From the NCBI GenBank assembly GCA_046484055.1, contig JAWOBY010000066.1:18928-82927 (forward strand): a DNA stretch of 64,000 nt, read 5' to 3'. Under the pieces are notes generated by a model. The model was not told the origin of the DNA, ran no database searches, and was given only the letters and a program-made list of their open reading frames with translations. This document shows, piece after piece, positions 2,315 to 63,060 of this stretch. The position numbers and the translations under genes are program-made. This stretch comes from Candidatus Woesearchaeota archaeon. Its GTDB lineage: Archaea > Nanobdellota > Nanobdellia > Woesearchaeales > UBA12501. Numbering within the stretch: position 1 is the stretch's first letter; each line of letters opens with the position of its first letter.

Positions 2315-3133
2315 CTACATGACCCTGAAATCAACGCAGACCCTGTACTTGCCCGGCCCGTAATTCCCGCATCTGTTCCAGCCGAGAATCTCGTATTCCT
2401 TCCTGCCCGCCGCTTTCCTTATCTTCTCAAAGCTTGCATCCGGCATTTCCTCCTCGCGCTCAAAATCATAGAAATGGATTGTTGTCCCTCTCCTCGATGC
2501 TGCTAGCGCGGTATCAAGGAAGTTCTCAGCCCCCCTGGGGAGCGGCATGATTATCCTGTCAAACCTTTTTCTGATTTTCGGCACCACCTTCCTGACATCA
2601 CCGAGGTAAAGCTTCACGTTCTGTGCCTTGTTAAGCTCCCTGTTCCTTAATGCATACTTATGGGCTTCAGGATTGACCTCAACACCATACACCTCCCTTG
2701 CTCCTGTGTTCCTGGATATCACGAACACATAGGGGCCCACGCCGGAGAACATCACAAGAACTGTCTCACCCGGCCTTACCTTCTCCATTATCCTTTTCCG
2801 CTCTGTGCTGAGCCTGGGCGAGAAATACACCTTTTCAGCATGCAGCAGGAGCCTCACATTGTTCTCCTTGTACTCTGTCTCCTTGCTCCTCCTGCCCGCT
2901 ATTATCTTGAGCTTCCTGAGCCTGAACTCCCCTGAATGTATCCCTGTCTTCTTGGCCACTGTCCTTATGTTCTTCTGAAGGTCCAGGAGGGTATTGCCGA
3001 TAAGCTTTTCCTTCTTCTCCAGCTCAGGAGGGATCTCTATTATGGCTATGGAACCGAGGGTATCATAGCTTCCCTTGAGCAGATCAAACTCTTTCGGGGT
3101 GAGTTTGCCCTTGAGGGCTTCCTTCAGTTTCAT
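2315..3133 (-). CDS. tRNA (m1G37) methyltransferase Trm5 / Taw2-like class I SAM methyltransferase
   Basis: Motif VLVMFSGVGPYVFVIS matches the Trm5/TYW2 SAM-binding loop. Start taken at the internal Met (MKLKEALKG), which abuts the downstream gene. Confidence 0.65.
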   Translation of the reverse strand: MKLKEALKGKLTPKEFDLLKGSYDTLGSIAIIEIPPELEKKEKLIGNTLLDLQKNIRTVAKKTGIHSGEFRLRKLKIIAGRRSKETEYKENNVRLLLHAEKVYFSPRLSTERKRIMEKVRPGETVLVMFSGVGPYVFVISRNTGAREVYGVEVNPEAHKYALRNRELNKAQNVKLYLGDVRKVVPKIRKRFDRIIMPLPRGAENFLDTALAASRRGTTIHFYDFEREEEMPDASFEKIRKAAGRKEYEILGWNRCGNYGPGKYRVCVDFRVM

Positions 3134-16753: not shown

Positions 16754-17779
16754 TCATGCGCCAAGAAGCTCTCTAACCTCTCTCGCAATCATCCTTGCCT
16801 CATCAGTCCTCACCGTGAGGACATTCTTTATCCTGAGATGGCCAAGATACTTTCTTATCCTGTTCCTTATGGCAGCGCTGTTCTCACCAATCCCTCCTGT
16901 GAAAACAAGCATGTCTATCCCGTTCATGGCGGCCGCATACGCGCCTATGTATTTGGCGGCGCGATAGCAGAACACATCCACTGCCAGCTTCGCTTTCCTG
17001 CTCTTCGATTCCAGAAGTTTTCTCATGTCACTGCTGAGGCCTGATATGCCGAGCAGGCCTGATTCCTTGTTGAGCATATTGTGTATCCTTTTAGGGCTGT
17101 GTCCTTTTGCTGTCAGGAACTGCATTATCCCTGGATCTATGTCCCCGCTCCTCGTGCCCATCACAAGGCCTTCCAGAGGGGTCATGCCCATCGATGTGTC
17201 TATGCTCTTTCCGTTCCTTATTGCTGTTACAGAACAACCATTGCCCAAGTGGCAGGTAACTATCCTCTGCTTTCTTATGTCTTTCCTAAGCCTCCGGCAT
17301 GCCTCATGCGCGACATACTTGTGGCTCGTGCCGTGGAATCCATATCTTCTTATCCTGTGCCTGCCTGACACATCAGAAGGAATCGCGTAGGTATACGCCT
17401 TTTCGGGCATGCTCTGATGGAATGCTGTGTCAAAGACAGCGATCTGTGGCTTGTCGAATATCCTCCTGCATATCCTTATCCCCTCGATCTCTGAGGGGTT
17501 GTGCAAGGGCGCAAGATCAGAAACCTTCTCAAGTTCCTTCATCAGAGCGCTGTTTATCCTTTGGGGCCTCTCAATCCTTCCTCCGTGCACAACGCGGTGG
17601 CCGACAGCATCTATGCTTATGCCCTTCCTGCTTATGATGCCCGATACCTTCAGCATCACCTTCCTGAAGTCATCTTTCTTTTTCAGTCCTTCAATGATGC
17701 CCTTGATCATCCTTTTTTCGTTGTCAAACACCTCATACTTGACAGAAGAGGACCCCACATTGAAAACCAGCACTTTCAT
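16754..17779 (-). CDS. ackA: Acetate (propionate) kinase family protein
   Basis: N-terminus MKVLVFNVGSSSVKYEVFD. Motifs VGHRVVHGG, HLGNGCSVTAI and FTGGIGENSAAIR. Compact at 341 aa. Confidence 0.8.
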   Translation of the reverse strand: MKVLVFNVGSSSVKYEVFDNEKRMIKGIIEGLKKKDDFRKVMLKVSGIISRKGISIDAVGHRVVHGGRIERPQRINSALMKELEKVSDLAPLHNPSEIEGIRICRRIFDKPQIAVFDTAFHQSMPEKAYTYAIPSDVSGRHRIRRYGFHGTSHKYVAHEACRRLRKDIRKQRIVTCHLGNGCSVTAIRNGKSIDTSMGMTPLEGLVMGTRSGDIDPGIMQFLTAKGHSPKRIHNMLNKESGLLGISGLSSDMRKLLESKSRKAKLAVDVFCYRAAKYIGAYAAAMNGIDMLVFTGGIGENSAAIRNRIRKYLGHLRIKNVLTVRTDEARMIAREVRELLGA

Positions 17780-17902
17780 TTTTCATCCACCACCTTTTAC
17801 GGCCTTCTTCATCAGCAGTATCGAATAGTATCATCCGGCAGTGTATATAAATTTTTTCAATGTATGCGATGCATGCCTTTCAAAAGATTTAAATAAAAAG
17901 CA

Positions 17903-19915
17903 GTGGAGGGACTATCTATCATGGGAGATGAGAGGGGGCCTTCAGGTCCTGAAGAGAAAGAGGAAAAAGAGGTGCTGAGCGGGGGGGCGCATGATAGGTT
18001 TCCCCCTCCCGAATGGTTCAGGCAGAAGGCCCGCATAAAAAGTTTTGAGGAGTATGAGAGGGAATACAACAGATCAATAGAGGATCCTGATTCTTACTGG
18101 AAAGACAAGGCGGAACAGATTGACTGGTTCGAAAAGAAAGACGGAAAGATATACTTCTGGGACGAAAAGGAGAGTATCTGCAAGTGGTTTGAGGGATGGA
18201 AGCTCAACGCATGCTACAACTGCATTGACAGGCACCTTGCTGACAAGGGGGAAAAGACAGCGATAATCTGGCAGGGCGAACCTGAAGATGATAAGAGGAC
18301 CTTCACGTACAAGGAGCTGCACAGGGAGGTGTGCAGGTTCGCCAATGTGCTAAAATCAAAAGGCGTAAAGAAAGGTGACAGGGTATGCGTCTATCTTCCT
18401 ATGATACCTGAGCTTGCGATAAGCATGCTCGCCTGCGCAAGGATAGGGGCGGTCCATTCCGTTGTTTTTGCTGCGTTCAGCCCCGCCGCATTGAGGGACA
18501 GGATTGATGATTCAAAAGCAAAACTCCTTATCACCGCAGACGGCAGTTTCAGGAAAGGCAGGGTGTATCCGATAAAACAGAATGCTGATGAGGCCCTAAG
18601 TGAGGGATGCGGAAGCATAGAGAACGTGATCGTGGTCAGAAGGACAGGAAGCGAGACAGACATGAAAGAGGAGAGGGACACCTGGCTGGACGAGGAGATC
18701 AAGGTTGTGTCTGATGAGTGCGAGGCAGAAGAGATGGACGCAGAGGATATGCTGTTCATACTCTACACCAGCGGGACCACAGGCAAGCCTAAGGGCGTTG
18801 TCCACACCACAGGAGGGTACCTGCTTTACGCCTACCAGACATTCAAGTGGGTGTTTGATATAAGGGATGAGGATATATACTGGTGTACTGCTGACATCTG
18901 CTGGATAACAGGCCATAGTTACATAGTTTACGGGCCCCTGGCGAACGCCGCCACCACTGTGATGTTTGAAGGGGCCCCGACATATCCCGAGCCTGACAGG
19001 TTCTGGAAGATCGTTGAGGACCTTAAAGTAAGCGTATTCTACACTGCTCCCACTGCAGTGAGAGCGCTTGCAGCAGAGGGCGATGAATGGCCAAAAAAGC
19101 ATGATCTCAGCAGCCTGAGACTACTGGGCAGTGTGGGCGAGCCCATAAACCCTGAGGCGTGGAGATGGTATCATGATAATATAGGGAGAGGGGAATGCCC
19201 AATTGTTGACACGTGGTGGCAGACAGAGACAGGTGGGATAATGATAACTCCTCTTCCTGGAGCGATGGATCTCAAGCCGGGATGCGCGATGAAGCCTTTT
19301 CCAGGCGTCAATCCTGCAGTGCTGAGGGAAGACGGCTCTGAAGCAGAGAGGGAAGAGAATGGTTATCTCGTGATAAAACAGCCATGGCCGGGAATGCTGA
19401 GAACATTATACAACAACCATGAGAGATTCAGGGAAACATACTTCTCAAGGTTCAGGGGGATGTATTTCACAGGGGACGGCGCTAAGAGAGACATCGAGGG
19501 GGACATCTGGCTGATGGGAAGGATTGATGATGTCATAAATGTCTCAGGTCACAGGGTGGGCACTGCAGAGATTGAAAGCGCACTGGTGAAGCATGGTGAT
19601 GTCGCTGAAGCTGCGGTCGTGCCTTACCCCCACAAGATAAAGGGAAGTGGGATCTATGCCTTTGTCACGCTCAACAAGGGTGTGGAGAAGAGCGAAGACC
19701 TGAAAAAATCCCTTACTGGACTGGTTTGTGATGAGATAAGCAAGGTCGTAAAGCCGGATAAGATACAGTTCTCTGATGCCCTGCCCAAGACAAGATCAGG
19801 CAAGATAATGCGGCGCATACTCAGGAAGATAGCTGAAGGATCACAGGATATAGGGGATACGTCAACGCTTGCTGACCCTTCAGTCGTTGATAAGCTGCTT
19901 GAAGAGAGGCAATGA
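17903..19915 (+). CDS. acs: Acetyl-CoA synthetase (AMP-forming)
   Basis: 670 aa. AMP-binding motif [13 protein letters not shown]-terminal RSGKIMRR. The start could instead be the Met at 17921. Confidence 0.9.
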
Positions 19916-19976
19916 ACACATCTCATGCGCACACACAGCCGAAAAATTTGATCAAAACGATGCCGGAAGATTGCTG

Positions 19977-20243
19977 ATGTCTCTGGAAAAAATAAGGGTG
20001 ATGGTGCAGCAGGCTGAATTCATGAGCCAGGATGACATAGAAGAGATAAAGGAATGCATAGGCCTTCTGAAAAAGAGTGAATGTTCTGATGGCAGGGTTC
20101 TTGAAGAGCATTTCTTCACAAAAGAGTTTGGTTTCCCAAAAGACTGGAAAGAATACAAATGGTATGTTGTCCAGATGCTGGACGAGTATTGTATAGTGAC
20201 TCCTGAGGAAGCAAGGAAATTCTATGACAGGGGCCTCATATAA
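19977..20243 (+). CDS. Hypothetical small protein
   Basis: The ORF has typical local codon usage. Its track start overlaps the acs 3' end, so the internal Met was chosen. No homology recognised. Confidence 0.3.
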   Translation: MSLEKIRVMVQQAEFMSQDDIEEIKECIGLLKKSECSDGRVLEEHFFTKEFGFPKDWKEYKWYVVQMLDEYCIVTPEEARKFYDRGLI

Positions 20244-20367
20244 TCCAGGGCATCAGAGCGCTCTCAATGGAAAGGGATTGAGGGAAGGGCGAACCTGATG
20301 GGGGTGGGATGGTGAATGTGAATGGGATTTATGAATGGGTTTTACAAGAGCGGACGCATTCGCCTCG

Positions 20368-21390
20368 TCAGTCCGCCTGCTCATGCGCATTCCCGTAATC
20401 CTTCTTTTGCGCTTCGATTACTGTTATGGCTGTTATGTCTACAATCTCCCGGACAGAACACCCCCTTGAGAGGTCATTAACCGGTTTTTTCAGGCCCTGA
20501 AGCACCGGCCCTACAGCCTGGGCCTTGCCGAAGAATGTTGCGAGCTTGTATCCTATGTTGGCTGCATTGAGCTCAGGGAATATGAGGACATTCGCTCCGC
20601 CATGCAGTTTGCAGTCAGGGCATTTTATCCTGCATACCTTGGGATCCACAGCAGCGTCAAGCTGCAATTCACCGTCAATGAGAAGGTCCGGAGCGTGGTA
20701 TTGGGCTATCTCTGTGGCTTCTTTCACTTTTTTCACCATCGGATGCTTCGCTGAACCCTTTGTGGAGAATGACAGCATCGCCACCTCGGGCTCCAGACCG
20801 AACCTTTTTGCGGTCATGGCGGTATCGATGGCTATGTTGGCCAGGTCTTTCGCGTCAGGATCCGGCTCCACAGCAGCATCAGCGAAAAGCATCAGCTTGT
20901 TCTTGAACATCATGAAGAATACCCCTGATACCTTATGGAACTTCTTCTTGGTCCCTATTATCTCGAATGCAGGCAGAAGGGTATGCGATGTGGGATGCAC
21001 AGCACCTGATATGAGGCCATCCGCATCCCCTGTCTGGACCATCATCACCCCGAAATGGACGGGTTCTTTCATTTTCTTCCTTGCCTTTTCAAGGGTGATC
21101 CCCTTGTGTTTCCTCAGCCTGTAAAACTCCTGGGAGTAAGAGTCAAGTTTCTTTGAATCCTCTGCCCCTATTATTTCGACCGTGTTCCGATCTATTGCGA
21201 GCCCGAGCTCTTTTATCCTGCCTATAATCTCTTTCTCATCGCCAATGAGGACAGGGCAGGCGATGCCTTCCCTTGTTATGGTTTCTATGGCCTTCAGTGT
21301 CCTTTCCTCTGTGGATTCAGGGTAGACTATCCTCTTGGGTTTTTTCTTTGCTTCTTCAATCCATTTTTCCATTATTTTTCTCATTGCCAT
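20368..21390 (-). CDS. pta: Phosphate acetyltransferase
   Basis: Blocks such as RLRKHKGITLEKARK, STKGSAKHP, IDGELQLDAA and NDLSRGCS match Pta (Methanosarcina-like). Start set at the internal MAMRKIMEK. Confidence 0.85.
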   Translation of the reverse strand: MAMRKIMEKWIEEAKKKPKRIVYPESTEERTLKAIETITREGIACPVLIGDEKEIIGRIKELGLAIDRNTVEIIGAEDSKKLDSYSQEFYRLRKHKGITLEKARKKMKEPVHFGVMMVQTGDADGLISGAVHPTSHTLLPAFEIIGTKKKFHKVSGVFFMMFKNKLMLFADAAVEPDPDAKDLANIAIDTAMTAKRFGLEPEVAMLSFSTKGSAKHPMVKKVKEATEIAQYHAPDLLIDGELQLDAAVDPKVCRIKCPDCKLHGGANVLIFPELNAANIGYKLATFFGKAQAVGPVLQGLKKPVNDLSRGCSVREIVDITAITVIEAQKKDYGNAHEQAD

Positions 21391-21590
21391 CTCGTAAGAT
21401 ATTCCATTATTTAAAAATTTGCACATACCGTGCAGGTCATACCCTGCCCAACCCCCCTAAACCCCTACTCAAAGGGGATGTTTCACATCTATAAGAGAGT
21501 GAAAAACCGTAACATATTAATAGTAGTACTACTTTTTCATTCACTGGGCAGGTAAAAATCGCCCAAAAAAAGAAAAAAGGGGGTTGGAAA

Positions 21591-41279: not shown

Positions 41280-43301
41280 TCAGATCTTCTGGATGAAGCC
41301 CCTCCTGGGCTCAAATATATCTCCATTCCTTTTGAGGCGTTCTATGGTCTCATCCACCTTGTCCGCGTCAATGCCTTTCTCTGAAGCTTCCTTCACGACG
41401 TCATCGATAGGCACCGGCTTGCCCACCTTGTTCTCAAGCTCTGATATCATCTCTTTGATCACTATCACATTGCTCCTCTGGCTCGCGCTTATCCCTGTGG
41501 TTATCCTGTCTATATCTATCTTGCCTGTCTCCCTGTCCAGACCTACCTGTTTGAGACAGTAATCAAGCAGGCTTATCGCCCTTCTGGCGTCTTTCTTTGT
41601 CACCTTCTCGCTCAACCTGAGCCTGGCGTTGGATTCGCTGAGCCTCACTAACGCTTCAAGCTGCCTTGGTGAGATTGGTATGGTCTTGACCGCGCCTTCC
41701 TCTGTGGATCCGGAGCTCCTCATGTTTATGTAATACTCCTGTATCTCCTGCATTGCCTCCTCATTCAGTTTTGGGAACACCCTTGTCCTTGCGTATGCTA
41801 TATATTTCCTGAGAAGTTTTGTGTCTATCTCCGGCTCTTCCGAGGCCGTACTCTTGTGCAGGTTCAGTATGAATTTTGCCATCCTCTTATCGTTTGTCTC
41901 ATCAGGCATATCCTTTATTGGGAATATAAGGTCGAACCTGTTTATCAGGGTGGGGGGGAGGTCTATCTGATTCGCCATTATGTCATAAGGGTTGAACCTT
42001 CCCATTTTGGGGTTGGCAGCTGCGAGGACAGTGGTCTCCGCCTTGAGGGTCGCCTGGATATTGGCTTTTGATATTGTGACTGTCTGCTGCTCAAGGGCCT
42101 CGTGCATGGCGGATCTGTCCTCTTTTGTCATCTTGTCCAGCTCGTCTATCATACAATTGCCCCTGTTCGCGAGGACAAGCGCTCCTGCCTCAAGCGCCCA
42201 CCCTTTGAGGAACTCATCCTTGACCACTGCTGCTGTTAGGCCCGCGCCTGAAGCGCCTTTTCCTCCCACATACCTTCCTTTTGGCGCTATCTTTGTCGCT
42301 CTCTTGAGGAGCTGGGATTTGCCCGCGCCAGGATCGCCTACAAGAAGTATGTGCATATCCCCTCTCGTGACAACGCCATCATCCCTCTCCTTCCTCACTC
42401 CCCCTATCAGCTGCAGGACTACAGCTTCCTTTATCTTTTCATGCCCATAGATGGAGGGGGCGATTGAATTGAATATCATTGAGTGTATCTTGGGGTCTTT
42501 GGAGAGCTCTTTTATCTGTTCTTTCTCGTCCTCGGTTATCTCAAGCTCTCCATATTCCTCCTCCACTGTCCCCACGTAATTGGATTCGATCACCAGGTCA
42601 AACCTTATTGACTGCCCCCCTGTACTCAGTATGACCGGCACTTCCTTGAGGATGCCGTTTATTGTTATCCTCGCGCCCGGGTTGGTCTTCTTATCGCTCA
42701 GGGGGCTGACAAGATCCTCTTTCAGGAAGACATCCATCCTCTTAGGCTGTTCTCCCCCTTCCAGGCTTTCCGGCACCTCTTCCAGCACCACCCTCTGCGC
42801 GTCAACCAGATCCTTGCTCACCAGCCTGAATTTCCCTTTGCGCCCGCATCCGCACCTGCTGGGTTCCTTGAACTTGGTGTCCACCTGAAGAACGGAGATC
42901 ATATTCCCGCAGCTGGGGCATTCGAATTTTGCCGAGGTGACCTGCGGCCTCACATCACTCTTCTGCCTGACGACCCCCTCTGTGTAGAGGAACTTGCTTA
43001 TGTGTTCGCTCCTTATGTTCCTTATTATTATCTTCTGGCTTTCAGGCAGGTTGCTGAAGCGCACCTTGAACTCCTTGTTCGTCTCCGGAAGATCGAATTC
43101 CTTTATGGCAAGCTCTGCAGCCTTTATGACTTCCTCAGGCTGTTCAAGAAGAAGATCAGCAAGGGATGGATCGAACTTTGATAATACCATGAAATCGACT
43201 ATAAGAAAGTGTTCTCCTCTTCTCGCTTTTTCAAGAAGCTCTGCGTGGTGGTGCAGTTCTATGAATTCAGCAAATTTTTTTATCTGGTCTACCAGTTCCA
43301 T
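41280..43301 (-). CDS. mcm: MCM replicative helicase
   Basis: Zn-finger cysteines. Walker A GDPGAGKSQLL. Arginine finger SRFD. C-terminal wH. 673 aa, no intein. Confidence 0.92.
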   Translation of the reverse strand: MELVDQIKKFAEFIELHHHAELLEKARRGEHFLIVDFMVLSKFDPSLADLLLEQPEEVIKAAELAIKEFDLPETNKEFKVRFSNLPESQKIIIRNIRSEHISKFLYTEGVVRQKSDVRPQVTSAKFECPSCGNMISVLQVDTKFKEPSRCGCGRKGKFRLVSKDLVDAQRVVLEEVPESLEGGEQPKRMDVFLKEDLVSPLSDKKTNPGARITINGILKEVPVILSTGGQSIRFDLVIESNYVGTVEEEYGELEITEDEKEQIKELSKDPKIHSMIFNSIAPSIYGHEKIKEAVVLQLIGGVRKERDDGVVTRGDMHILLVGDPGAGKSQLLKRATKIAPKGRYVGGKGASGAGLTAAVVKDEFLKGWALEAGALVLANRGNCMIDELDKMTKEDRSAMHEALEQQTVTISKANIQATLKAETTVLAAANPKMGRFNPYDIMANQIDLPPTLINRFDLIFPIKDMPDETNDKRMAKFILNLHKSTASEEPEIDTKLLRKYIAYARTRVFPKLNEEAMQEIQEYYINMRSSGSTEEGAVKTIPISPRQLEALVRLSESNARLRLSEKVTKKDARRAISLLDYCLKQVGLDRETGKIDIDRITTGISASQRSNVIVIKEMISELENKVGKPVPIDDVVKEASEKGIDADKVDETIERLKRNGDIFEPRRGFIQKI

Positions 43302-43955: not shown

Positions 43956-44035
43956 TATAAATAACATCCCTCATTTATAAATGCTTTGTTTTTAAACCGG
44001 AAATCTTTTAGAACTAGTATAATTTATTGGCAAAA

Positions 44036-44404
44036 ATGATAATAAATAAGAGCAGAAACAGGGTTCTGGCCAAGAATTCGCGGATTCTGGACTCTTTTTT
44101 GGGCAAGGCAAGGGGTTTGATGTTCCACAGGAGGATCAGCAAAGAAGGGGATGGATATGGGGGATATGGGCTTGTATTCCCCTTTGATTCAGAGGCCAGG
44201 AGAAGCATACACATGTTTTTCGTCTTCTTTCCCATTGATGTGCTGTTTCTTGACAGGAAGAGGAGGGTTGTTGAGGTGAAGGAGCGCCTGAAGCCTTTCT
44301 CTATCTGCCTGCCCAAAAAGAAGAGCAAATACATTATTGAGCTGCCTGCAGGTGTGGTATCAAGCACAGCTTTAATGATAGGGGATATCATAAACTTTAA
44401 ATAG
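44036..44404 (+). CDS. DUF192-family protein (COG1430)
   Basis: Pattern KARGLMF...PIDVLFLD...VVEVKERLKP...GDII typical of DUF192. Confidence 0.5.
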   Translation: MIINKSRNRVLAKNSRILDSFLGKARGLMFHRRISKEGDGYGGYGLVFPFDSEARRSIHMFFVFFPIDVLFLDRKRRVVEVKERLKPFSICLPKKKSKYIIELPAGVVSSTALMIGDIINFK

Positions 44405-44442
44405 GCCAGCGCTAACTTCGGGGAAGAACCGGCTGGGATCAT

Positions 44443-44633
44443 GGGGCTGTAGTATAACCTGGCTAGTATAGTTGGCTCCAGTCAATGGAGCGATGAGGCA
44501 AATTGCTTGTTTGCTGATGATTAATGGTTTGGTATGTCAGGGCATGCCAGTTTCGCTCTGAGGAAGATACCAACGGGTCTGGGTTCAAATCGCGAGGGCG
44601 GAAAGCCCTTCCATGGAAGTCCCAGCAGCCCCA
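44443..44633 (+). tRNA. tRNA-Trp (anticodon CCA) with an 87 nt intron at the canonical 37/38 position and a ~30 nt insertion in the T-loop
   Basis: Acceptor GGGGCUG/CAGCCCC plus discriminator A. U8. D-loop AACCUGGCUA. Anticodon stem GUUGG/CCAAC. Loop CUCCAG|A. Variable region GGGU. T-arm CUGGG-UUCAAAU-[30 nt]-CCCAG. The intron (44482-44568) contains CGAUGA, CUGAUGA and CUGA box C/D-like motifs. A poly-T tract follows. Confidence 0.6.
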
Positions 44634-44755
44634 TCCCGGTCTTTTTATCATGTTCTCATGCCCCTCTTCATATCCATCTTTATGATTGATAAAAATTTAA
44701 AAACCCTCCCCTATTGTTCGGTCTGAAAAAGAGGTAAAAAGGGCAGGATACGATA

Positions 44756-58704: not shown

Positions 58705-61700
58705 TCATTCTTTGAAGTCAAGCGCGAACTTATACTCAATGGGTTCTCTCACAGCCCTCCTCTTCTCAGGGTCATATACAGATGACATGCTTTCTGTTCT
58801 CACGCAAAGCTTGTAATTCCTCTTCTCAACCTCGCATCTGGTTCCTGAATCATCATCGGTAAAGGTGAGGGTGTTCCCGTCCTTTTTGGCATATAATGTC
58901 TCTACACCGCTTTCTGTCCTTATCCTCTTGCTGTCTTCTACAGAACCGGGGAATGAATAGGACGCATCCGGGGTTTCAGAGGTTATCTTTATCTTGCCGG
59001 AGCCTGAAGCGCTTATCGTGACCTCCTCACTGCTGTCCTCCTTCTCGTACTCATACTCAAGGGGTATCTCGCAAGTGCACTGGTCGCTCTCTGATTCCGC
59101 GCAGGCCTTGGTCCACTCGGCGAAATCGCTGATCATATTCTCCTGATAATCGCAGGGCCCGTTGAAGAGGAGGAGGTCATCATCTATCTCCCTGCGGTCA
59201 TCTACCGCTTCCTTGACACATTCCCTGAGACCATCCGAGCTCTCGTCTTTGCACTCATGTATTATCTCTTTTGCTGTCCGGATCAGCTTGCTGTACACTT
59301 CAGGGTCGTAATCGGTCTCTGCCCTGAAGGAGGGGTTCGCATAATACTCCCCTATCTTCATGTAATCCACTGGCTTGTACTCACAGACATAAGGGGAGCC
59401 TCCCGCTTCAACCATCATTGAATCCCCTTCTCTTGTCACCGCCCTCTTCACTGCTGCCATGACCCTTGAAGGATACTCATACATCCCTTCCGCGAACTCT
59501 TTGCTCCATCCCCTGCTTTCAGCCAGATCTTCAGCATCCTCCAATGTTATATCCTCCCACTTGATCTCCTCTGCCATCTTATCCTCTCTTTCAGATGCAA
59601 GGCTCCTGATCTCTTTCGCCACTCCTTCTCCATACCTGTAGCAGAGGCTGATCCAGTAATAATAATCCCCGTTCGTTTCGGGCACGACGCTGCATTCCTT
59701 GATTGTGTTCTTCAATGAGATGGCTCCTGCCCCAATCTGGTCGCCTGCTCCCTCCATACCCTTGATGAAGTCATCCCACTTGCAGGTCTCTTCCTCGCAC
59801 TCATTCGGCCCCAGTCCTGATTCTGTTGCGGGACCGACTCTCATCAGGCCGCAGTAACCGTTCTTGTTGCAGACGCATCCTTCATCATTGCAGAACATGT
59901 TGTCTTCTGATTCCTCAAAAGGTGTTGGGTCGCCTCCTGATTCCACTGCTATAATCCCTTTTATGAGCCCTGCAGGCAGATCATAATGCTCGTTCATTTC
60001 AGTGATATGCTCTTCATACTCTTTTATCCTTCCTTTTGCCTTGTCCCAGTCAGAGCTGTCATCAAGAGTGTGGTCTATCTGGCTGAAATCATAATCAGGA
60101 AGGTTATCCTCAGCGATGTCCATGCCGGTTATGGCTGTTTCTATAGCTGTTCCTGAAGCTTCATTGCCCGCCGGACCTGTTGGATGCTGTGTCCTGTCTG
60201 TCATGGGATTCAGGGAAGGACCGAAGAGCCTGCTGACAAGCCCGGTGATAATATTATCTTCATTGCCATCAGGAGAACCAGGTTCCGCCACTGCGGCTGT
60301 TGTTATGCTGTTCCCCCCTCCCAGGTCTGCTTTGGTGAATGAGTCAAAACCTTTCGGCCTTGCGAACCCTATCTTCATGCCGGGCTTTTTCTCCTGCTGG
60401 GCCCTCCTTATCTTCATGAATTCCTTGAGAGGCCGGTCCTTCAGGTGGCTTCCCCCTCCTGATTCGGATGTCCAGAGCTCTCCTCCCTTTCCGTATATCA
60501 TCAGCACATGATCCCATGTGCGCTTTGACATCCAGTTATTGGTCCCCCCGCTGGGCCTGTCCAGGAGGACGATGTCTCCCGGCCGTGCCTCTGATTCGCT
60601 TATCATGGTGGAGTACTTCGGGCTGCCCCACTGCTCGGCCAACGGGCCGTGTCCGCTTCCTAATCCTTCCATCCCTTTGCGTTCCCGTATCTCATTCACC
60701 AGGAAATGGACCCAGCCCGAGCAGTCGATGCCTCTTCCGGGTGTGGATCCGCCTAGCTGATATTCGGTGTTGTAATACTTGCTTGTCAGCTCGTCTATTA
60801 TGCCCGAAACTGTCCTGGCTCTCTCTTGGCCGGTTCCTGCTGATACATCTTCCCCTCCTCTGTCAGGAGTGTACTCACAGACGCATCTCAATGCTCTGCC
60901 TCCTGCAGTTGCGGTTGTCATGCCACCCATGCAGGCTGTGGACTCGTCAAGCTTCCTTATGATCGGCATGACCTTGCTGATGTAGTAGGGGTCTGTGGCA
61001 TAGCCCGCTTCTCGTGTCGCTTCAAGGATCTGCGGGGCTGTGAGCTTTGTGATATCTGAAGTCCCGAACATCTCTCTCCTCTTGCTGCTGTGCCTGCTCT
61101 TCTCAAGCAGTTCTATATGGGCCCTGAAACTCTCTGTGGCGGATGAGTATTTGGCGAAGTCTGCTGTCACGGTAGTCCTTTTTCCTTCATAATATTCTGT
61201 CGTTTCCGTTCTGTAACTGCCTGCATCGCCGCTTCCTTTAACACCAAAAAAATTATTGGCGTTCTTTGTGAGACCTGAACTGCCGTATCCGCTTTCCAGG
61301 GCTGCCTGCGCGAGCGTGAATTTGGCGAGCTCTATCGATCCTCTTGATGCCGCAACTGCATCATCCCAATACTTGCTGAAGAATCCCCTCTCTTTACCGC
61401 CGTGCATGGAGAAGTCAGGGCATGAAGAGCCAGTGCTGCTCACAGGCATCCCAGTTATAGAATTTACAGCTGATCCTGTTATCTGCCCTGTTGTTTGTGA
61501 TGCGCTTCCTGATGAGGACGCGATGCCCGCTGACTGTCTCTTCTTCTTCACTGCCACAAGGGCCATGGGTATGCTCCTTCCGCTGTCAGAGAAACTCTTT
61601 GTCTCTCCCCCCGATCTTATTGATACATCCCTCCCGCTCACATGGTATTCAAGCGATGTGGAGCTGCCCCCGTCCAAAGCTATGGTGCGTGTGCACTTGT

Positions 61701-63060
61701 GCTGATTCTTCATATATTCCGCGAACTGCAGAGATGTCGCGCGCTCTGCAGCGAAAAGCTTTATCTCTCCGTTCTCTGTTATGCAGATTGAAGCCCTCTG
61801 CCTCACGCCCTTGTCATTCCTGACCACAACACTTCCTTTTTTTATGAATGTCCTGAAGTCGCTTACAGCTGAGCTAACTGAACTCATCTGCTCATCACTG
61901 TATGATCTGAACTCTTCAGCAGTGATTATCTTCTGCATACCATCCTCAACAACAAAGAAATTCTCCTCCTCCATATCCCCCCTGCCTTCTATCAGTTCTC
62001 CGTAGGCTATTATGTCTGTTGTGGGGCTGAAGTCGGGCTCGAAATAGACTCCGTTTATTGCCGCAACAGAATCAGGCACCCCTCCTATGATCTCCTTGAG
62101 CGGGGCTGACCTCTTGCCCAGCACCTCATCAGCTGTGACTGTCCTCAACACATATTGCCTGGGGTCAAGAGTGGCTGTGTACGACCTGCCCCCATTGAGT
62201 GTTGATTCCTGGATGTTTATTCCAGCCCCTTCAGAAAGCGCGGTGATGCTCTCTGTCTGGGACGAGCCTGGAATACAAAGGTTTCCCTGCACCCCTCCTA
62301 TATCAGGCACTGCAGCGACCCCCTGTGGCGTGCTGGTCTGAGTTCCCGCGTACTCCTTTATGGAATCCAATAATAACTCTGCCAGCTTCTGCCTGAAGCC
62401 ATCATCATTGAGTCTCGGATCATCAGTGTTGCTCAACTCTATCAGGGCGGTGGCTGCCTTGTCTGATTCTGACGCTTTCCTCAGGAAGTAGAGGTATTGG
62501 CTGTATTTTTTTAATGGTTTGTTGCTCACATCCCCGAACTTTCTTGCTATTATCTCGCCCAGTTTCTTGTCTTCCGCGCTGCCTGCGCTCCAGTCGCACT
62601 TCTCCCTGTACTTGTCTGCTGAGGGGCAGTGTATTATCACCTTGCTCCCCTTGCAGTTCAGGCAGTCGCTGTGTATGTCTATTATGACATCCGCGTCCGC
62701 TTTCAGGGCCTTGCCTGCCCTCTTCTCAAGGTTCTTCTTGCTGCCCCCGCTGCAGTCTTCAACCCTTGTCATCACAGCATTGCCGCCTTCTGATTCCACC
62801 ATGGCTTTAAGTTTCATCGCTACGTCCTGGACTATCTCAGCCTCTCCCGGCGCGCCCGCGTTACAGCCCGTACCTGCAGGAGTCCCGTGCCCCGCTTCTA
62901 TCGCTATGGTTTTTCCCGAGAGTGCCTGTGCGCTTGCGCTAAAAGATGACATGGAGGCGCAGATCATCAGGAGAGCTGCCAATAACAGGATTCTTGAAGG
63001 ATGCAATTCCTGCTTTGCATTTCCGATGCTTGTGCCTCTCTTCTTGTTTATATTCCCCAT
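58705..63060 (-). CDS. Giant secreted multi-domain cell-wall (peptidoglycan) hydrolase: Amidase_3, phosphodiester glycosidase (DUF2233), GH73 glucosaminidase, NlpC/P60 and SLT domains
   Basis: Signal peptide. Amidase_3 IAIEAGHGTPAGTG...VMTRVED...DVIIDIHSD. DUF2233 AINGVYFEP...IALDGGSSTS. GH73 AALESGYGSSGLTKNANNFFGVKG...GYATDPYY. NlpC/P60 GIDCSGWVHF...WDHVLMIYG. SLT IIAVESGGDP...YCGLMRV. Confidence 0.8.
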   Translation of the reverse strand: MGNINKKRGTSIGNAKQELHPSRILLLAALLMICASMSSFSASAQALSGKTIAIEAGHGTPAGTGCNAGAPGEAEIVQDVAMKLKAMVESEGGNAVMTRVEDCSGGSKKNLEKRAGKALKADADVIIDIHSDCLNCKGSKVIIHCPSADKYREKCDWSAGSAEDKKLGEIIARKFGDVSNKPLKKYSQYLYFLRKASESDKAATALIELSNTDDPRLNDDGFRQKLAELLLDSIKEYAGTQTSTPQGVAAVPDIGGVQGNLCIPGSSQTESITALSEGAGINIQESTLNGGRSYTATLDPRQYVLRTVTADEVLGKRSAPLKEIIGGVPDSVAAINGVYFEPDFSPTTDIIAYGELIEGRGDMEEENFFVVEDGMQKIITAEEFRSYSDEQMSSVSSAVSDFRTFIKKGSVVVRNDKGVRQRASICITENGEIKLFAAERATSLQFAEYMKNQHKCTRTIALDGGSSTSLEYHVSGRDVSIRSGGETKSFSDSGRSIPMALVAVKKKRQSAGIASSSGSASQTTGQITGSAVNSITGMPVSSTGSSCPDFSMHGGKERGFFSKYWDDAVAASRGSIELAKFTLAQAALESGYGSSGLTKNANNFFGVKGSGDAGSYRTETTEYYEGKRTTVTADFAKYSSATESFRAHIELLEKSRHSSKRREMFGTSDITKLTAPQILEATREAGYATDPYYISKVMPIIRKLDESTACMGGMTTATAGGRALRCVCEYTPDRGGEDVSAGTGQERARTVSGIIDELTSKYYNTEYQLGGSTPGRGIDCSGWVHFLVNEIRERKGMEGLGSGHGPLAEQWGSPKYSTMISESEARPGDIVLLDRPSGGTNNWMSKRTWDHVLMIYGKGGELWTSESGGGSHLKDRPLKEFMKIRRAQQEKKPGMKIGFARPKGFDSFTKADLGGGNSITTAAVAEPGSPDGNEDNIITGLVSRLFGPSLNPMTDRTQHPTGPAGNEASGTAIETAITGMDIAEDNLPDYDFSQIDHTLDDSSDWDKAKGRIKEYEEHITEMNEHYDLPAGLIKGIIAVESGGDPTPFEESEDNMFCNDEGCVCNKNGYCGLMRVGPATESGLGPNECEEETCKWDDFIKGMEGAGDQIGAGAISLKNTIKECSVVPETNGDYYYWISLCYRYGEGVAKEIRSLASEREDKMAEEIKWEDITLEDAEDLAESRGWSKEFAEGMYEYPSRVMAAVKRAVTREGDSMMVEAGGSPYVCEYKPVDYMKIGEYYANPSFRAETDYDPEVYSKLIRTAKEIIHECKDESSDGLRECVKEAVDDRREIDDDLLLFNGPCDYQENMISDFAEWTKACAESESDQCTCEIPLEYEYEKEDSSEEVTISASGSGKIKITSETPDASYSFPGSVEDSKRIRTESGVETLYAKKDGNTLTFTDDDSGTRCEVEKRNYKLCVRTESMSSVYDPEKRRAVREPIEYKFALDFKE

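Follow-up and report, generated by a model that had tools for sequence, protein, structure and literature searches.

The DNA analyzed here, called the window throughout, is a stretch of 64,000 nucleotides (64 kb) from contig JAWOBY010000066.1 of a Candidatus Woesearchaeota archaeon (GenBank assembly GCA_046484055.1). The plus strand of the window carries, at 44443-44633, a gene for tRNA-Trp with the anticodon CCA, which is made up of three exons and two introns. Exon 1, GGGGCUGUAGUAUAACCUGGCUAGUAUAGUUGGCUCCAG (44443-44481), contains tRNA positions 1-37; exon 2, ACCAACGGGUCUGGGUUCAAA (44569-44589), contains positions 38-59; and exon 3, UCCCAGCAGCCCCA (44620-44633), contains positions 60-73. The anticodon nucleotides C34, C35 and A36 (44478-44480) all lie in exon 1, the discriminator base is A73, and the terminal CCA is not encoded. 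Intron 1 (87 nt, 44482-44568) interrupts the gene at the canonical site between positions 37 and 38 (37/38), and intron 2 (30 nt, 44590-44619) interrupts it in the T-loop, at the non-canonical site 59/60. As read from the sequence, the TATA-box-like element TTTAAATA (44396-44403, plus strand), which lies 40-47 nt upstream of the tRNA 5' end, is likely to be an archaeal promoter, and the run of five T at 44642-44646 (plus strand), 9 nt past the discriminator, is likely to be an archaeal terminator.

A tRNA-Trp gene with two introns

Related tRNA-Trp genes were collected by three routes. Look-ups of relatives of the neighboring MCM gene, based on conserved synteny, gave five distinct tRNA-Trp loci that were unselected on RNA. 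Species-representative genomes were also scanned with the pattern TGGCTCCAGTN{2,3}TGGAGCGNNGA, which gave 81 loci. About 74 of these belonged to Woesearchaeota or Nanoarchaeota, and six were bacterial chance matches, which is approximately the number expected by our own estimate. Because this pattern includes part of the intron, an additional scan of metagenomes was performed with the exon-only pattern CTGGCTAGAATNGNTGGCTCCAG; it yielded 48 loci with 40 unique tRNA-Trp genes, which served as the unbiased sample. The genome-scan sample used for intron statistics consisted of 77 unique introns.

The raw 64-kb window gave no tRNA calls from ARAGORN, in either default or intron mode, or from Rfam at gathering thresholds, and with Rfam at gathering scores and ARAGORN no RNA gene of any kind was found in the window. 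When the unspliced locus (44380-44700) was compared with Rfam at E ≤ 10, no tRNA match was obtained, and the only matches were to snoRNAs at chance level. The T-arm motif of the type GGTTCRAAT occurs once in the window, at the tRNA-Trp locus. After deletion of both the 87 nt of intron 1 and the 30 nt of intron 2, ARAGORN called a 74-nt tRNA-Trp(CCA) with an acceptor stem of 7 bp, a D stem of 4 bp, an anticodon stem of 5 bp and a T stem of 5 bp, in agreement with an earlier annotation made from the DNA letters without database searches (the sequence-only reading). Deletion of the T-loop insertion alone led ARAGORN with the -i option to call the same tRNA-Trp with an 87-nt intron at 37/38. In addition, one relative from the same clade, L110, has no intron 1 and reads CTCCAG|ACCAGC at this point, and is therefore a natural intron-less allele. 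The 87-nt intron at 37/38 that the sequence-only reading had described was confirmed by these two results.

Across about 115 related tRNA-Trp genes the exons are kept and the introns diverge, with an exon identity of 90-95% among relatives that differ in intron length and sequence. The anticodon stem covaries, occurring as GUUGG/CCAAC, GGUGG/CCACC, GCUGG/CCAGC and GAUGG/CCAUC, and compensatory changes were found in all four stems, including the anticodon, T and acceptor stems. In most relatives, for example L005 and L032, the T-loop has no insertion and its junction reads TTCAAAT|CCCAG. Because of the conserved exons, the covarying anticodon stem, the insertion-free relatives and the L110 allele, the locus is no chance construction. 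The tRNA-Trp gene is real, and the gene call and both introns are secure. Since ARAGORN and Rfam are silent on the window, similar genomes would be scored as being without tRNA-Trp, which matters when completeness is estimated and when DPANN archaea are said to have 'missing' tRNAs.

The boundaries of intron 2 were assigned by the standard bulge-helix-bulge (BHB) register, in which the two 3-nt bulges are 4 bp apart and the splice site lies between the second and third nucleotides of each bulge. This register places intron 2 at 44590-44619. The sequence-only reading had noticed an insertion of about 30 nt at a non-canonical T-loop site; the insertion is real, but it had been put after position 60 (44591-44620), whereas the site is 59/60. 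The two placements are equivalent in sequence, owing to a shared T. The outer helix of the BHB is the T stem (44579-44583 with 44621-44625), and in the central helix U54 U55 C56 A57 (44584-44587) pairs with UGGA (44614-44617, intron positions -6 to -3) in four of four pairs. The bulges are A58 A59^U on the 5' side and A G^U60 on the 3' side. The inner helix has an imperfect base followed by the hairpin GAGGGC/GCCCUU, and the closest relative, L002, has a perfect hBHBh' at its 59/60 intron. An intron at 59/60 was found in 15 of about 75 parsed relatives. These introns are 16-100 nt long and unrelated in sequence; 13 of the 15 have four of four central pairs in the BHB register, and covariation links position 57 to intron position -6 (A:U in nine cases, G:C in four). 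Minimum free energy (MFE) folding of short pieces around intron 2 did not recover the BHB and gave z-scores near 0; MFE folding is not expected to find bulged 4-bp helices, and the BHB was judged instead by its register and covariation.

Introns at 59/60 and 53/54 have already been described in ARMAN-2, and a 59/60 intron is cleaved in vitro by a DPANN endonuclease (PMC3239211). Many disrupted tRNA genes are reported from DPANN lineages, one surveyed Woesearchaeota genome included, and they are frequent in lineages in which the splicing endonuclease EndA has an L3 loop (PMC5829648). Intron 2 is therefore an ordinary BHB intron of a known class. The alternative that the T-loop insertion is left unspliced, so that the locus is a pseudogene or yields a tRNA whose T-loop is enlarged, the true tRNA-Trp being encoded elsewhere, is hardly credible. 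Splicing was deduced from sequence, the view was limited to 64 kb of the genome, and close relatives such as L032 have no insertion, all of which would agree with such an alternative; yet the exons are intact, the insertion sits within a 3-4-3 BHB with a fully paired central helix, and 14 other relatives have unrelated insertions there in the same register, covarying with position 57. The in vitro cleavage of 59/60 introns and the many disrupted tRNA genes of DPANN lineages with L3-loop EndA also speak for splicing.

Intron 1 has a relaxed BHB in the 3-4-3 register, and its boundaries were established from the sequence, the energy of a constrained fold, the relatives and L110. The outer helix is the anticodon stem, and the central helix joins C32-C35 (44476-44479) to GAAG (44563-44566) by three of four pairs, with a C34-A mismatch. 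The 5' bulge is A36 G37^U and the 3' bulge is A U^A38. The inner helix begins with C(44483):G(44562) and continues with GGAGCGA (44487-44493) paired to UCGCUCU (44553-44559), a register that is 80% canonical across relatives. The last six nucleotides of intron 1 are GAAGNN in 54 of the 77 relatives and GGAGNN, which makes the central helix perfect, in 8, together 62 of 77. BHB motifs were thus found at both junctions proposed in the sequence-only reading, in the 3-4-3 form with 4/4 pairs at intron 2 and in the relaxed form with 3/4 pairs at intron 1.

Kink-turn, antisense elements and folds of intron 1

We compared the internal structure of intron 1 with that of its relatives. The order UGGAGCG - NNGA - hairpin - NNN - GA was common to all relatives inspected. 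In the window, the NNGA element is a D-type box, AUGA (44493-44496), which is the non-bulged strand of a kink-turn (K-turn). It is followed by hairpin P2 (GGCAAAU/GUUUGCU, 44497-44515), which is the canonical stem of the K-turn, and by a C-type box (44516-44523), which is the bulged strand and consists of the 3-nt bulge GAU, GA (44519-44520) and UUA. This is K-turn geometry: one strand has GA immediately 5' to the canonical stem, and the other has GA after a 3-nt bulge. The arrangement NNGA-hairpin-NNN-GA was present in 75 of the 77 unique genome-scan introns, with a stem of at least 3 bp in 69, and it arose in 5.7% of trials when intron interiors were shuffled. P2 is conserved and covaries, with 36 different 5' strands among the relatives and with pairs 2 and 3 found as CG, GC, UA and AU. 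The D-type box is AUGA in 63 relatives and CUGA in 5, and it was also found as ACGA, GUGA, AAGA and NGGA. Of 75 relatives, 67 have GAU or AAU as the C-type bulge, with GA after it. The non-canonical stem is formed by GA/AG, then U-U (42/75), then A-U (53/75), which is typical of box C/D K-turns. Judged by these sequences, the first motif is the D-type box and the second, (G)AUGAUUA, is the C-type box of one K-turn. The C and D boxes that form a K-turn are thus represented by a single motif (AUGA, P2, GAU-GA), in the permuted order of D before C.

A second hairpin, P3 (UCAGGGC ... GCUCUGA, 44537-44561), also covaries. Over 40 relatives, 91% of cells were canonical pairs, with 18 extra pair types, and the variants included UCAGGGC/GCUCUGA, UUGAAGC/GCUUCAA in the closest relative, and UCAAAGC/GCUUUGA.

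Upstream of the D-type box lies the first antisense element, guide element 1 (UGGAGCG, 44486-44492). Its UGGAGC pairs with G31-A36 (44475-44480), and the G opposite C34 is the fifth nucleotide upstream of the D-type box. Analysis of the exon-only sample showed that 35 of the 40 genes have the strict parse GGAG-NN-NNGA-hairpin-NNNGA and that three more have it loosely. The remaining two are L103, in which the guide and K-turn module is degenerate, and the intron-less L110, which indicates that the module can be lost. The gap between GGAG and the box is always two nucleotides, although their identity varies (CG 30, AG 2, CA 2, CU 1), and GGAG lies at a variable distance from the intron start, 4-8 nt in general and 39 nt in one gene. 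Guide element 1 competes with the central helix of the BHB for C32-C35, and so its conservation needs a function other than splicing.

The second antisense element, guide element 2 (UUGGUAU, 44529-44535), pairs with A(-2) U(-1) | A38 C39 C40 A41 A42 (44567-44573) of the unspliced precursor, and the G opposite C39 (44570) is the fifth nucleotide upstream of the expected start of a D' box (44537). We analyzed 52 long-form introns (at least 57 nt), in which the second element, UGGU-NN, pairs with -2, -1, A38 C39 C40 A41. The duplex from -2 to 41 was about 95% canonical and covaried. At position -2 the pairs were AU 42, UA 6 and GC 2, and at position -1 they were GC 32, UA 9, CG 6 and UG 2. The paired combinations at -2/-1 were AG/CU 30, AU/AU 8, UC/GA 4, UG/CA 2, AU/GU 2 and GC/GC 2, so that 48 of the 52 introns were paired and 4 were unpaired. 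None of 500 partner shuffles reached the observed pairing, and registers slid by 1-3 nt gave values of 0.30-0.40. The partner of C39 follows the GA of the C-type box by 11 nt (range 10-12), which is the fifth position counted back from the end of a spacer of 13 nt. The arrangement of box C/D RNAs, with the antisense element next to box D or D' and the target opposite the fifth nucleotide, was found for C34 and, relative to the expected D' position, for C39.

The same part of the intron allows another register. Within 44525-44536, AAUGGUUUGGUAUG, the segment UGGUUUGG is able to form 8 bp (one G-U) with C34-A41 of the spliced tRNA, in which case C34 faces the fifth nucleotide from the same box position. 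By inspection, relative L085 (GGUCUGGUAUG) can do the same.

Five candidates for a second K-turn were also considered. These were P3 as a canonical stem, UUGA with GGAAGA, the 3' CUGA with GCGAUGA, GGAGCGA/UCGCUCU as a canonical stem, and a kink-loop (K-loop) of CUGA-GGAAGA. Each of them failed because GA beside the stem, the bulge length, or conservation across intron types was not satisfied. As no conserved second K-turn or K-loop was found, intron 1 does not qualify as a canonical dual-guide C/D RNA; it is more like a half-mer plus one additional antisense arm.

We then folded the whole 191-nt precursor. The unconstrained MFE fold (-68.9 kcal/mol, z-score -2.0) holds both guide duplexes, P2 and P3. 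A fold forced to contain the cloverleaf and both BHB cores (-57.3 kcal/mol) uses the GGAGCGA/UCGCUCU helix and excludes P3 and guide element 1. The segment UCGCUCU (44553-44559), the alternative partner of GGAGCGA in this splicing-competent fold, shares GCUCU with P3, and the inner helix of the BHB and P3 are therefore mutually exclusive. Nearest-neighbor energies ignore tRNA tertiary structure and proteins, and the ranking of the two folds by these values is not meaningful. In the models, both the guide fold and the splicing-competent BHB fold are accessible, each excluding the other. Mutually exclusive guide and BHB folds have also been described for the euryarchaeal tRNA-Trp precursor.

Proposed function of intron 1

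We consider it probable that this Woesearchaeota tRNA-Trp, with its two BHB introns, carries in intron 1 a permuted box C/D-like guide with a single K-turn, which would direct methylation of C34 and possibly of C39. The idea of a methylation guide is supported by the comparative sequence data. In the proposed mechanism, the archaeal splicing endonuclease would remove the 87-nt intron at 37/38 and the 30-nt intron at 59/60 at their BHB motifs. The D-type AUGA and the C-type GAU-GA-UUA, which flank P2, would form one K-turn, the kind of site that is bound by L7Ae. Pairing of UGGAGC with G31-A36 would set C34 at the fifth nucleotide from the D-type box, the distance of the fibrillarin ruler, and 2'-O-methylation of C34 (Cm34) is predicted. 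UUGGUAU, which ends 13 nt downstream of the C-type box, would pair with the last two intron nucleotides and A38-A42 and would set C39 at the equivalent fifth position, so that Cm39 is possible. The precursor would have to switch between the guide fold and the splicing-competent BHB fold. Protein binding, methylation and the order of events are predictions of this scheme, and the excised intron, which is probably circularised, may act in trans.

In such a permuted guide, the D-type box comes first and the C-type box second, the two are closed by a hairpin, and the antisense arms would run toward the intron ends. In a circular topology the order becomes C - 13 nt (guide 2) - P3 - GGAAGA - 11 to 12 nt (guide 1) - D, with spacers not far from the canonical 12 nt, which is suggestive only. 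A more specific proposal is that the intron is a naturally permuted single-K-turn guide whose arms need either the BHB helices or circularisation after excision to be joined into a canonical C-guide-D loop. We put this forward tentatively, as a possibility that is rather doubtful. If it is true, splicing would both release the tRNA and complete the guide.

Several observations weigh against a methylation guide. No second K-turn or K-loop (C'/D') could be drawn for the window intron, and the expected D' site is UCAG inside P3, which in relatives is UUGA (about 30), UCAA, UCAG or UCGC, with no conserved GA. The Rfam matches of the C/D type were sub-threshold and to generic eukaryotic families (snoZ105, E = 1.5; Afu_190, E = 0.68; DdR13, E = 0.82), far below gathering scores. 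The guide duplexes are short, at 6 and 7 bp, and a search of the single window sequence that tolerated G-U pairs gave chance duplexes of equal length; that search was therefore rejected as evidence either way, and the support for the guides is comparative. For guide element 1, the spacing is the informative feature, because C32-A36 is invariant in tRNA-Trp and compensatory change cannot be seen. No gene for L7Ae, Nop5, fibrillarin or EndA lies within the 64-kb window, and there were no matches when the window and about 0.9 Mb of related loci were screened with crude fibrillarin and L7Ae motifs, a screen too crude to indicate absence. Fibrillarin and Nop5 are among the near-universal single-copy markers of archaea (PMC9258230).

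The single K-turn and the lack of a conserved D' GA would also suit a scaffold for splicing or folding, in which the K-turn recruits L7Ae or stiffens the RNA and the complementarities time or regulate the BHB, without methylation. Such a role could explain why both complementarities compete directly with the BHB fold, like a regulatory switch, and Haloferax can do without the intron and its methylations under standard conditions (PMC11408192). We nevertheless regard a scaffold as unlikely. The partner of C34 keeps a constant distance from the GA box, that of the fibrillarin ruler, whereas other spacings drift, and the second duplex sets C39 at the same ruler distance from a position that is fixed relative to the C-type box. 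Moreover, 34 and 39 are exactly the positions methylated via the euryarchaeal Trp intron, and a pure scaffold needs no such register. A canonical dual-guide box C/D RNA, as proposed in the sequence-only reading, is far less probable still. It would have CGAUGA as box C, CUGAUGA as D'/C', the 3' CUGA as box D, and guides upstream of D' and D. These motifs are present in the window sequence, and weak Rfam C/D alignments were obtained (E 0.7-1.5), but a D' and a C' that share UGA cannot fold back on each other, and no terminal stem joins the flanks of the supposed C and D boxes. The sequences GCG-AUGA and GAUGA are instead the two strands of the one K-turn around the covarying P2, and the proposed CUGAUGA straddles the end of P2 and the C-type box. 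The supposed box D, the 3' CUGA (44558-44561), belongs to the 3' strand of the covarying P3 and is UCAA in the closest relative. The supposed D' guide is hairpin P2, and the supposed D guide is the loop and 3' strand of P3; both lie inside hairpins, and neither has conserved complementarity to the tRNA. The likeness to the euryarchaeal tRNA-Trp intron that guides 2'-O-methylation, which had been pointed out in the same reading, holds, and the C34/C39 register matches the Cm34/Nm39 targets of such introns.

Intron 1 is most plausibly a Woesearchaeota form of the tRNA-Trp guide that directs methylation of its own tRNA, a known trick in an unusual layout. Read in this way, it would extend self-targeting guides encoded in tRNA introns from Euryarchaeota to Woesearchaeota, in a permuted form with one K-turn, with a bearing on the minimum elements of the C/D ribonucleoprotein (RNP) and on the order of splicing and modification. 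If the more specific and rather doubtful proposal above is true, a DPANN lineage would use a minimal 'half-mer' C/D RNP for Cm34, and possibly Cm39, on its only tRNA-Trp, and the short-form relatives, at 37-48 nt, would rank as the smallest methylation guides known in nature.

Genomic setting and comparison with known systems

The genes around tRNA-Trp encode MCM (41280-43301, minus strand), TBP, a DUF192 protein and a transporter of the Trp/Tyr-permease family. An exact look-up of the window MCM protein gave no record; in a homologue search, the protein was 100% identical to one of an NCBI metagenome-assembled genome (MAG) named 'Candidatus Woesearchaeota archaeon', and the next 120 named matches are all from Woesearchaeota or Nanoarchaeota. 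The Trp/Tyr-permease-family gene (PF03222, 44756-45901, plus strand) lies directly downstream of tRNA-Trp, an adjacency that is kept in L001-L003 and L006 and that may be either a coincidence or a functional link. An open reading frame of 142 aa (44014-44442, minus strand) ends beside the tRNA start and overlaps the DUF192 gene (44027-44404, plus strand) on the opposite strand; it is probably spurious. A gene for a methyltransferase of the Trm5/TYW2 family is located at 2315-3133 (minus strand). Enzymes of this family make wyosine derivatives or m1G37 and could plausibly act on G37 of this tRNA-Trp. The window also contains clustered genes for acetate kinase, acetyl-CoA synthetase and phosphotransacetylase (16754-21426), and a gene for a 1451-aa protein (58705-63060, minus strand) with three domains of the peptidoglycan-hydrolase type (Amidase_3, NAGPA and Glucosaminidase), here in an archaeal DPANN genome. 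The remainder of the window consists of ordinary archaeal information-processing genes.

Woesearchaeota-type tRNA-Trp was also found in many MAGs titled 'uncultured Methanosarcinales archaeon ... binchicken' (L012, L013, L017, L019, L035, L036, L057 and others). L057 is the same contig as L006, and the MCM of L006 is 74% identical to that of the window. The Methanosarcinales labels of these MAGs look wrong.

Seven insertion sites were found in the related tRNA-Trp genes, with up to five introns per gene. The gene with five introns is that of L037 (minus strand, around the TGGCTCCAG match), in which the sites are the D-loop (about 16/17), the D-stem (about 24/25), 37/38, the junction of variable region and T stem (about 47/48) and 59/60. 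Deletion of the five segments gave a clean 74-nt tRNA-Trp by ARAGORN. Four introns each were found in L025, L033 and L044. Reviews give a maximum of three introns per archaeal tRNA gene (PMC3239211, PMC4033280). The very active gain and loss of BHB introns in one tRNA makes these genes a good system for studying intron spread. At L005 1384-1208 (minus strand; the same sequence occurs in L127), the 3' end AATCCCAGCAGCCCC(A/C) recurs twice downstream of tRNA-Trp at a spacing of about 90 nt. These repeats look as though they were left by successive integrations at the tRNA 3' end or arose by some other duplication.

The known introns closest in kind to intron 2 are those of ARMAN-2 pre-tRNA-Cys and pre-tRNA-Pro, at 59/60 and 53/54, which share with it the 59/60 site, the BHB of T stem and T-loop, and a DPANN host (PMC3239211). 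They differ in the tRNA and in the lineage. The ARMAN-2 endonuclease is of the epsilon2 type, whereas other surveyed DPANN lineages were reported to have alpha4 enzymes with the L3 loop (PMC5829648); the enzyme of the window genome is not among the genes seen. As a putative guide, intron 1 has its counterparts in other tRNA-Trp introns and in permuted C/D RNAs.

The tRNA-Trp intron of Euryarchaeota has the canonical order C - guide - D' - C' - guide - D, with two K-turns. This linear order is not found in intron 1, in which only 3-4 nt precede guide element 1, there is one K-turn, closed by a hairpin, and the D-type box is upstream of the C-type box. The D box is also AUGA and not CUGA, no C'/D' is recognisable after guide element 2, position 39 is C and not U, and the host is a DPANN archaeon. 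In Euryarchaeota, a box C/D RNA within the intron guides the 2'-O-methylation of C34 and U39 (PMC4090602, PMC11408192, PMC7994747). The intron of Haloferax volcanii (103-105 nt) and Pyrococcus sR50 are like intron 1 in the tRNA, in the 37/38 site and in being long for tRNA introns. As in these introns, complementarity in intron 1 is centered on positions 34 and 39, the antisense elements set C34 and nucleotide 39 at the fifth position from a box, and the guide and BHB folds exclude each other.

The tRNA-Trp intron of Sulfolobus solfataricus (65 nt) resembles intron 1 in its incomplete set of boxes. It has no consensus boxes, contains two 7-bp complementarities at 34 and 39, and forms a stable circle (PMC3326292). 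In contrast, one K-turn, well formed and covarying, is retained in the Woesearchaeota intron. In both Haloferax and Sulfolobus, tRNA-Trp introns form stable circles once excised (PMC3326292, PMC7714728), whereas the Woesearchaeota intron is known from its sequence. Permuted C/D RNAs, with box D upstream of box C and a canonical order on circularisation, occur in Nanoarchaeum equitans and Pyrobaculum (PMC3491384, PMC6009581). Intron 1 is like them in its order of boxes, and the known cases also include a C/D-like RNA inside a DPANN tRNA intron (PMC3491384, PMC6009581). Unlike these RNAs, which are free-standing or in tRNA-Met, the permuted unit described here lies in tRNA-Trp and is predicted to target its own host tRNA.

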